Assembly: GCA_963713615.1 (NCBI GenBank)
Contig: CAVQMM010000001.1
Span: 2,112,001 to 2,176,000 of the forward strand
Direction: 5' to 3'
Length of the DNA stretch: 64,000 nt
From: an uncultured Chlamydiae bacterium
GTDB lineage: Bacteria; Chlamydiota; Chlamydiia; Chlamydiales; JAJFMA01
The notes under the pieces are model-generated. The model saw only the letters and a list, made by a program, of their open reading frames with translations. It was not told where the DNA came from and made no database searches. Of this stretch, positions 33,579 through 35,364 are shown piece after piece. The position numbers were made by a program, and so were the translations under genes. Numbering within the stretch: position 1 is the first letter of the stretch; the number at the start of each line of letters is the position of its first letter.

Positions 33579-33873
33579 TTGATATCTCCTCCCCTTTTCA
33601 AATTTAATCATGCACCATTTCTCTAGAAAAAGCCAGAAACACTGCCTTCGTGTAAGCAACGATTTTCCAAGATGGACGCCGCCGAAATAAAAGAGAAAAG
33701 AAAGGTTCATCCGGTTTTGTAGAACTTGACTACACAGGCAGGCGTGAGCGAAAAAACATGATTCATAGTTGCTATGCTGAATTTAGAGGAAGCTTGTAAG
33801 AAAGTCCTTTGAAAAAGCGAACCCTCCGATTAAAAAAGCTGTTATCAACCAACAACCCAATCGGAGGTCCGCT

Positions 33874-34965
33874 ATGAAAAACTATATAGGCAAAAAGGTT
33901 TTTTTAGGAATGGATGTTCACAAAAAAACGTATGCCGTGACAGCGATTAGCGATAATCAAATCGTGAAAAGAGATACTCTGCAAGCCGAACCGTCAATTC
34001 TGATCAGCTAATGCAAGAAATATTTTCCAAGAGCAGAAATTTATAGTGCCTATGAAGCAGGCTTTTGTGGATTTCATTTACATCGCTGCCTTGAAGCCAA
34101 TGGGATAAAAAATATTGTGGTGGACGCAGCTAGCATTGAGGTTGCTGCTGGAGATAGAGTAAAGACTGACAAACGTGATTCTTTAAAATTAGCGTCACAC
34201 CTTGCTTTAGGTAAACTAAAAGGAATTTTTGTCCCTTCTATTGAACAAGAGGATCGTAGGGCCGTCACTAGACTTCGAGAGAAGTTTGTATGTGAACGTT
34301 CTCGATTGGCATGTCAAATAAAAGCCCTAATGTACCAGCATGGCTTAATCAGGGCTGATGACAGGAGAATGGTTTCGCCAAGATGGATTAAAGAAATTGA
34401 GTCTTTAAAATTGCGCCCCGGACTGACTTTTGCGTTACGTCAGCATTGCAGCTTGTGGCTGCATGTAAACGAAAAAATTGCCGAGATGGATCGTGAAATC
34501 TCTGTTCAAGCAAGAGCAGATGGACCTATTGAGATGGTTTACAGAAGTGTTCCAGGAAGTGGACCAACATCATCTCGAGTTTTAGCAAATGAACTAGGAG
34601 ATACGTCGCAATTTAACAATGAAAGGCAAATCTTTAGTTATATTGGTCTTACGCCAAGCGAACACTCATCTGGAGAGCATGTTAGGCAAGGGCACATAAC
34701 AAGGCAAGGCAGGCCGATTTTGCGTAAAATTTTAGTCCAAGTAGCCTGGAAGGCTATTAAATTAGACGATTCGCTAAAAAAGACTTATGAGCAGCTTGCA
34801 AAAAGGGTGGGAGGAAAAAGAGCTATTGTAGGGGTAGCGAGAAGGATTGTTGGTCGCATAAGGGCTTGCTTTAGAACAGGCGAATTGTACCGCATAGAAG
34901 AGATCACGACTGAGTCCGGGAAAGAAATCGTAAAGTATAGGTATAAAATATTGGAAAATATTTAA
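33874..34965 (+). pseudogene. IS110 DEDD recombinase with one premature stop (TAA 34009-34011)
   Basis: GMDVHK, YEAG, KTDKRDS, GLTPSEHSSG, single frame throughout. Confidence 0.92.
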
Positions 34966-35072
34966 TTTTACGTATTGTGGGGATGGGAACAAAAACTTCA
35001 AGGGGCACCCTCTAGAAGACTAGAGGTGCCTTTTGAAAAATATTCATGTTCCAAATCGGTTTGATGGTTTAT

Positions 35073-35228
35073 GGGTGACTCTGCGCAAATATCCTTGTGA
35101 GCATGAAAATGCATCACGTTTTATAGTTTAGAGCGCCCAATTTTTAAAGCTCGAATAAACAACTTGTGGCAAACCTACGGGTCTGACCACGAATAGCAGG
35201 TTGGTCTTAGAGATCGTATTTATCGAGC
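35073..35228 (+). ncRNA. Bridge/seek RNA core (target-binding and donor-binding loops)
   Basis: Two stem-internal loop-hairpin modules whose loops match the flanking target and the circle junction. Confidence 0.8.
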
Positions 35229-35364
35229 AACACCAAAAGACGATGAGGAAAACGATCGGAGGACCCAAGTGAGCTAACGAACGCCCGCAACTAACAATTC
35301 GCTTGACAATTCACATAGCAGGATATGCATGATATTTAGGATACTCCATAGAAGTCTCCAAACA

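Follow-up and report, generated by a model that had tools for sequence, protein, structure and literature searches.

Members of the IS110 family grouped as IS1111-type have been defined by three traits: non-coding DNA downstream, repeats set 7 and 3 bp in, and a match to the top strand that precedes the one to the bottom strand (Siddiquee et al. 2024, PMC11187229). The available texts describe the right-end RNAs of such elements in two ways, as target-only seekers (Siddiquee et al., PMC11187229) and, by prediction, as two-loop bridges (Durrant et al., PMC11208160). In the accessible part of the latter study, bridge RNAs at the right end were predicted for 93% of IS1111 elements, the donor part often having several loops, and ISCARN28, ISAzs32 and ISPa11 were inspected. 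For IS1111-type elements, the right-guide-first order, the location of the RNA in the right end and a branched donor loop have thus all been published before. Elsewhere in the family, Perry et al. screened 72 orthologues, which according to the available text come from the IS621-like clade, and 32,190 bridge RNAs in 86 models were decoded computationally (accessible part of 10.64898/2026.10.21.760802); these 86 models may include the scaffold described here. Excision by cutting versus copying is debated for the family in the available parts of two reports (PMC13626964; 10.64898/2026.08.31.748434), and further family literature, likewise accessible in part, includes 10.1101/2025.10.25.684509, 10.64898/2026.03.19.712850, 10.64898/2026.08.14.744561 and PMC13604230.

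We analyzed a stretch of 64,000 nucleotides (the window) from the genome of an uncultured Chlamydiae bacterium (3.97 Mb in 3 contigs), which carries one full copy of an IS110-family insertion sequence of IS1111 type (positions 33769-35321, 1553 bp; Table 1). In the reading that we consider very probable, the right end of this element encodes a two-module RNA that matches both the insertion site and the element's own joined ends; this RNA likely guided a recombinase tetramer to the AG core of a 12-bp target within a dispersed repeat, and the copy is now probably immobile. The coordinates and strings listed in a preliminary description of the locus were all present in the sequence as given there. 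Related loci were collected from genomes (78), a phylum search (18), metagenomes (80) and viral contigs (22). All reconstructed features are collected below.

Table 1. Features of the element and its insertion site, in window coordinates
Feature	Position	Strand	Basis or remark
Left part of dispersed intergenic repeat (target)	33704..33766	+	Uninterrupted paralogous copies in genome
Left target arm TTCAT	33762-33766	+	Within target repeat
AG core, left copy	33767..33768	+	One AG in empty site versus two in occupied site; likewise in relatives
Short left end, 105 bp, with right donor arm TTG(C) and RBS ahead of ATG	33769..33873	+	Sequence; conserved in relatives
-10 hexamer TATGCT	33773-33778	+	Left end
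Left sub-terminal inverted repeat ATGCTGAATT	33774..33783	+	Pairs with 35308-35316, one-base bulge
IS110-family DEDD recombinase gene, 363 codons	33874..34965	+	PF01548, PF02371, NF033542; profile alignment to IS621 and ISCro4
Terminator-like hairpin followed by T residues, between gene and RNA; not conserved	34997..35036	+	
Target-binding module	35073..35138	+	Structure covariation; guide-flank covariation
Right target guide ATATC+CT	35089-35095	+	Target-binding module
Left target guide TTTAT+AG	35120-35126	+	Target-binding module, after inner hairpin
Donor-binding module, three-way junction	35149..35228	+	Single-sequence fold, consensus, donor-end matches
Right donor guide CAACT	35160-35164	+	Donor-binding module
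Left donor guide ATAGC+AG	35193-35199	+	Donor-binding module, after inner hairpin
Extra hairpin of donor module	about 35203-35215	+	Addition to the preliminary description
Right end	35303..35319	+	Sequence; relatives
-35 hexamer TTGACA	35303-35308	+	Right end
Right inverted repeat AATTCACAT	35308-35316	+	Followed by 3-bp extension AGC
Left donor arm ATAGC	35315-35319	+	Right end
AG core, right copy	35320..35321	+	Sequence, relatives, empty site
Right part of target repeat	35322..35363	+	Paralogous empty copy
Right target arm GATAT	35322-35326	+	Paralogous empty copy

Element boundaries, insertion site and neighborhood

When the two flanks are joined, they match other places in the genome across the junction (the best being G000:C1:1251170-1251278, 94.5% identical over 109 nt with a single AG), which places the insertion in a repeat that is intergenic and dispersed. 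A BLAST search with the empty repeat copy returned 14 matches of at least 60 nt. The uninterrupted target paralogue in the same genome, together with multi-copy relatives, upheld the element boundaries and the AG core proposed earlier, and the predicted empty target GATTCAT-AG-GATAT was recovered from a paralogous repeat copy as an empty site with a single AG. The element thus shows the IS110-family trait of a 2-nt core shared by both ends, with no other target duplication when compared with the empty site. The exact target 12-mer TTCATAGGATAT has 8 empty occurrences in the genome, against about 0.8 expected, and 6 of the 8 fall inside the target repeat. The empty allele was also sought in 40 related genomes, none of which covers the junction (0/40); it was the paralogous repeats of the same genome that gave the empty site. 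An arrangement of terminal inverted repeats with a target duplication was considered and rejected, since only a single AG is present at the empty site and the repeats agree with the 7+3 geometry.

Remnants of this element and of related ones were identified at three other places of the genome. The first (L231, G000:C1:153299) retains 31 nt from the left end of the element described here, inserted at the corresponding position of a different copy of the target repeat; it is an independent insertion that was truncated later, and is also matched by a contig of one public run. The second (L001, G000:C1:374.9-376.2 kb) encodes a 46% identical protein without its N-terminus and has kept the RNA and the right end, with a right target guide that matches its flank. 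The third (L229, G000:C1:3742908, minus strand) comprises a left end and about 20 codons, and is then interrupted by a 160-bp element.

The ends AG-TTGCTATG and CATAGC-AG recur in close relatives. In one relative's genome, both ends and a flank consensus are common to all 9 copies, one of which (L013) was counted after its duplicated tail; over the five bases beside the core, the guide is matched in full by the left arm in 6 of these 9 copies and by the right arm in 8. Since the ends of relatives were called by a motif that presupposes AG, the conservation of the core among them is partly built in. With the core counted on the left, extensions of 7 bp on the left and 3 bp on the right lie outside inverted repeats that begin with ATG and end with CAT, a 7/3 geometry shared with IS4321 in L211. 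The repeats are 9-10 bp long and bulged, which is inside the range of 7-17 bp given by Durrant et al. and under the usual 11-13 bp, and their two arms change together in relatives (e.g. L003, L018, L117 and L125).

Joining the element's ends gives TTGACA-17 nt-TATGCT with TG before the -10 hexamer, as had been proposed, the agreement being one of consensus match only. Of 48 called end pairs, 43 show the same promoter pattern, and two of the five others have a wrongly called left end. No consensus promoter was found inside the integrated element. The public runs matched to the element reached a best share of 0.18 of words; among the contigs listed for four of them there was no circle junction, and the single RNA run contributed just a 34-nt piece, which came from a relative.

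The element has several neighbors in the window. Downstream (35365-35524) lies a miniature element of 160 bp whose terminal inverted repeats start with GGCCTT; it has 103 exact-length copies in the genome and an 8-bp target duplication in 94 of 114 end pairs. An 1883-bp element that shares these ends and this duplication (G000:C1:1035800-1037682) encodes a 559-aa DUF6399 protein and is likely the autonomous partner of the miniature element. Positions 35590-35620 hold a diverged partial copy of the miniature element's end, and matches of 71-76% to this segment elsewhere suggest a second family. The flanking coding regions include a 120-aa frame with a WYL-like end by eye and no Pfam or NCBIfam match (33348-33710, minus strand), a gene pair for a 95-aa protein without family match and a 103-aa HTH protein (HTH_3; 35909-36464, minus strand), which we take to be arranged like a RelE/HigB-type toxin-antitoxin pair, and a Bcr/CflA-like MFS efflux transporter 1.9 kb from the element (37256-38443, minus strand; TIGR00710 at 197.6 bits, cut-off 200.9).

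The recombinase gene and its lineage

The recombinase frame is interrupted by TAA at codon 46 (34009-34011). The part after the stop matches the PF01548 (DEDD RuvC-like) and PF02371 (Tnp) domains, and the NCBIfam model NF033542 (IS110 family RNA-guided transposase) is matched at 189 bits, with a cut-off of 140. Profile alignment to IS621 and ISCro4 reveals distant likeness only (E 6e-12 and 4e-13). In line with the preliminary description, the DEDD and serine residues D14, E61, D99, D102 and S266 are all present, and in the alignment S266 coincides with the IS621 loop that bears the catalytic serine, S241 according to the available text of PMC11208158. D14 precedes the stop, so that no single product has all five catalytic residues. 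A restart at GTG 34117 was considered and rejected, since its product is without D14 and E61. The preliminary description took the TAA for the sole defect of the gene, which may be so. Residue 229 departs from 53 of 53 intact relatives at a near-invariant column; the intact relatives themselves carry 0 to 13 private departures at such columns (none in 19 of the 53), and residue 229 therefore neither proves nor excludes further decay. With its early stop, the copy is probably immobile on its own. The window's genome yielded no intact recombinase from the lineage, so that no helper in trans is evident. As for the stop itself, the four public runs contributed scattered short contigs, none among those listed spanning the codon.

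The recombinase and its RNA had been presented as a chlamydial pair. This holds for the closest relatives, which are 53-66% identical and come from bins labelled Chlamydiae; the lineage as a whole is wider, extending to bins of Bdellovibrionota, Verrucomicrobiales and Bacteroidota and to Acaryochloris plasmids. The phylum search matched 12 of 401 genomes, and a Pseudobacteriovorax-labelled bin is among the relatives' sources. Judging by these relatives, the host would be an environmental chlamydia. In a quick tree of 44 proteins (SH-aLRT support only, midpoint root), the sisters of the recombinase are L003 and L005 (96), all three belonging to a 13-row clade (99) that is part of a wider branch (94). 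ISEc11, IS4321, ISKpn2, ISSba8 and ISShdy1 form a clade of their own (SH-aLRT 100), apart from the window protein, which is thus not nested among the canonical IS1111 recombinases in the narrow sense of the ISEc11/IS4321 clade. By this tree, the recombinase would fall outside that clade, in a branch in which no tested member was found. Some members of a Bacteroidota sister clade (L043-L049, L058 and L070) also have AG-core ends.

A protein resembling this lineage is listed without an ISfinder name in Supplementary Table 1 of Durrant et al. (row 992; PMC11208160). The accessible portion of the supplements to that paper gave no match for 'Chlamyd', the right-end 10-mer or YEAGFCGF. In the literature searched, made up mainly of open papers, there was no description of the element and no experiment on its lineage.

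The right-end RNA and its four guides

As is characteristic of the IS1111 group, the element combines a short left end (105 bp) with a long non-coding region downstream of the gene (right end of 356 bp). The two-module fold proposed for this region was recovered, with its stems at 35073-82/35130-38 and 35149-59/35219-28, and the DNA folds beyond shuffled controls (z of -5.30 for 34966-35321, with 0 of 100 shuffles as good, and z of -3.35 for 35060-35240, with 0 of 200). A nucleotide profile seeded with 35060-35235 was run over 202 loci (8 duplicates were removed beforehand, and 9 of the 202 are flank-only) and matched 96 of them, always downstream of the gene. Neither the Bacteroidota sister clade (L024-L079) nor any of the viral loci (L188-L209) gave a match to the RNA model. 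The spacers between gene and RNA are 0-313 nt long in relatives, and a test for a hairpin followed by T residues flags 12 of 57, this copy not being among them.

The consensus structure was derived from 38 non-redundant RNAs picked by hand. In module 1 it comprises an outer stem and an inner hairpin, and in module 2 an inner hairpin. The closing stem of the donor module is present in the single-sequence fold and absent from this consensus. The two target guides, which partly pair together in the single-sequence fold, are open in the consensus. The stems covary: both partners vary in 21 of the 27 consensus pairs, and 94.4% of cells pair; these counts are biased in favor of the structure, which was derived from the same alignment. 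None of 500 shuffles reached any of the measures, and with slid partners pairing falls to 33-51%. Both modules follow one frame, consisting of the right guide, CT, one base (W), GTG, a hairpin, CACG, the left guide and AG.

The proposed assignment and order of the target guides was borne out by covariation of guides with flanks in 28-30 relatives. For the left target guide, the match at the five core-adjacent positions is 0.80, 0.83, 0.80, 0.97 and 0.97, versus 0.26-0.33 in permuted pairs (n=30, these being the relatives out of 38 with a distinct guide and a flank of at least 7 nt), and positions 6 and 7 give no signal over permutation. For the right target guide, it is 0.93, 0.86, 0.79, 0.75 and 0.71, versus 0.25-0.41 permuted (n=28), and position 6 is weak (0.39 versus 0.21). 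No permutation out of 10,000 reached the total for either guide. These permutations ignore kinship, and the test was therefore rerun inside the close clade alone, where the match is 0.95 versus 0.40 for the left guide (n=15, 14 distinct guides) and 0.84 versus 0.43 for the right guide (n=14), in both cases with 0 of 20,000 permutations as high. When the two loops are swapped to the IS621 order, matches drop to 0.14-0.31, i.e. to chance level (n=26). The top-strand match is thus located 5' of the bottom-strand match, as in the IS1111 group, and the arrangement of the IS110 group (IS621 and ISEc21 type, with an upstream RNA and the bottom-strand match first) is not found. Because the guide-flank match is confined to five positions per side, the recognized target is, as judged from these alignments, about 5+2+5 bp. 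One relative (L021) has a right target guide without one core-pairing base. In a handshake tabulation of a single position, the base after the core complement does not track the base before the target core.

The donor guides also agree with their earlier assignment, the left by covariation with the right end and the right by a match over 5 nt with little variation. In all variants observed, the left donor guide and the right end are identical: ATAGT (L018 and L133), ATGGC (L130, L144 and L147) and ATGAC (L140-L142). The right donor guide corresponds to the core and three further bases, with a match of 0.82-1.0 at five positions and 0.35 at the sixth (n=34); it varies little, its covariation is thin, and three variant classes mismatch. 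In an intact relative on the Acaryochloris plasmid NZ_CP071718.1, from a cultured cyanobacterium (L221), the core is TG, at either end as well as in the two left guides, and the left flank fits its guide poorly (2/5). In L013 (2904-3114), a 102-bp tandem duplication extends from the DNA of the left donor guide (ATAGCAG) to the right end (ATAGCAG). The joining of the right end to a look-alike inside the RNA gene could reflect half-match recombination, slippage or an assembly error.

Mechanism, alternative readings and comparison with known systems

These sequence comparisons establish the boundaries, the core, the empty site, the RNA stems and the four guides with their order, and the RNA likely steers insertion. 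By analogy with IS621, ISEc11 and the relatives, the ends would join at AG to form a circle, which would create the TTGACA-17-TATGCT promoter, and one transcript would span the gene and the RNA and then be trimmed. As in other members of the family, the first module would open the target TTCAT-AG-GATAT, with ATATCCU pairing to the top strand on the right side of the core and UUUAUAG to the bottom strand on its left side (one G-U pair), and the second module would handle the donor ATAGC-AG-TTG likewise. Composite DEDD/Ser sites would then exchange strands at the core, leaving one AG per end.

Could the target module alone be the guide? In such a system the RNA would act like the short seekRNA of ISEc11, the protein would read the ends through the inverted repeats, and the second module would be a vestige or a structural aid. 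An 82-nt seekRNA with target matches sufficed for ISEc11 movement (available text of PMC11187229), the inverted repeats of this element covary, and the right donor guide is nearly constant. We nevertheless hold a target-only RNA to be unlikely, since in three variant classes the right end and the left donor guide vary in concert, the guide likewise follows the altered TG core of L221, and the second module is built on the same CT-W-GTG...CACG...AG frame as the first, with an inner hairpin that covaries. The covariation of the donor guides favors two loops, on the evidence of the aligned relatives, and makes the point testable.

The two-module reading also carries the view that this copy has decayed, which would be wrong if the stop were a consensus error of the assembly and the element were intact and active in the living cell. 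There is one stop and no frameshift, the five catalytic residues are present, the RNA and the ends are undamaged, and the end branch measures 0.30 versus 0.23 for two sisters. An active copy is still improbable in our judgment, since the genome contains only this copy and truncated remnants, which fits a decayed family. As to mere coincidence, by which the loops would match by chance in AT-rich DNA and the region would be an ordinary terminator or repeat, each match covers only 5-7 nt and an Rfam search returned no family at E up to 1. This explanation, to which we assign practically no weight, is refuted by covariation in 28-30 elements, the within-clade and swapped-role controls and the empty site.

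The copy itself is ordinary and probably dead, and its value lies in the decoded scaffold (guide registers, core and ends) of a lineage far from IS621 that has many intact relatives. The importance is limited by the large number of bridge RNAs already decoded and by the target of about 12 bp, which is shorter than that of IS621. As a bolder conjecture, which we put forward with low confidence, the AG-core lineage might constitute a separate subfamily of bridge recombinases, in which the RNA consists of two copies of one module, both right-guide-first, with ~30 naturally reprogrammed targets and at least one reprogrammed core. If this were true, an intact relative would supply the first direct demonstration that IS1111-type elements read their own ends by a donor loop, and would provide a compact tool with a non-CT core that works without IS621-like handshake guides.

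Among the described systems near to it are the seekRNA elements ISEc11, ISPa11, ISKpn4 and ISPst6, with which, in the available text of PMC11187229, the element shares the downstream non-coding region, the match order, the junction promoter, the repeat offsets (7 bp left, 3 bp right) and the GL-P----SG motif; ISPa11 also targets a repeat. The repeats of those elements are 11-13 bp long, versus 9-10 bp and bulged here, and the accessible account gives target matches only, whereas a donor module is readable in this element. For ISCARN28 and other elements of the IS1111 group, right-end bridge RNAs with a multi-loop donor part, as here, have been predicted (available text of PMC11208160), and the recombinase of ISCARN28, which is outside the 44-protein tree, carries motifs similar by eye (GMDVHK, AGPCG, DRVKTDRRD and GLVPSEDSSG). 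With IS621 and ISCro4/IS622 the element shares the DEDD and serine chemistry, two modules with four guides, a 2-bp core, a repeat target and a junction promoter (accessible parts of PMC11208160, PMC11208158, PMC13626964 and 10.1101/2025.05.14.653916). Those systems, as described there, have a left-end RNA with the left guide first, a CT core, a 14-bp target and handshake guides, whereas the present element has a right-end RNA with the right guide first, an AG core and a target of about 12 bp.
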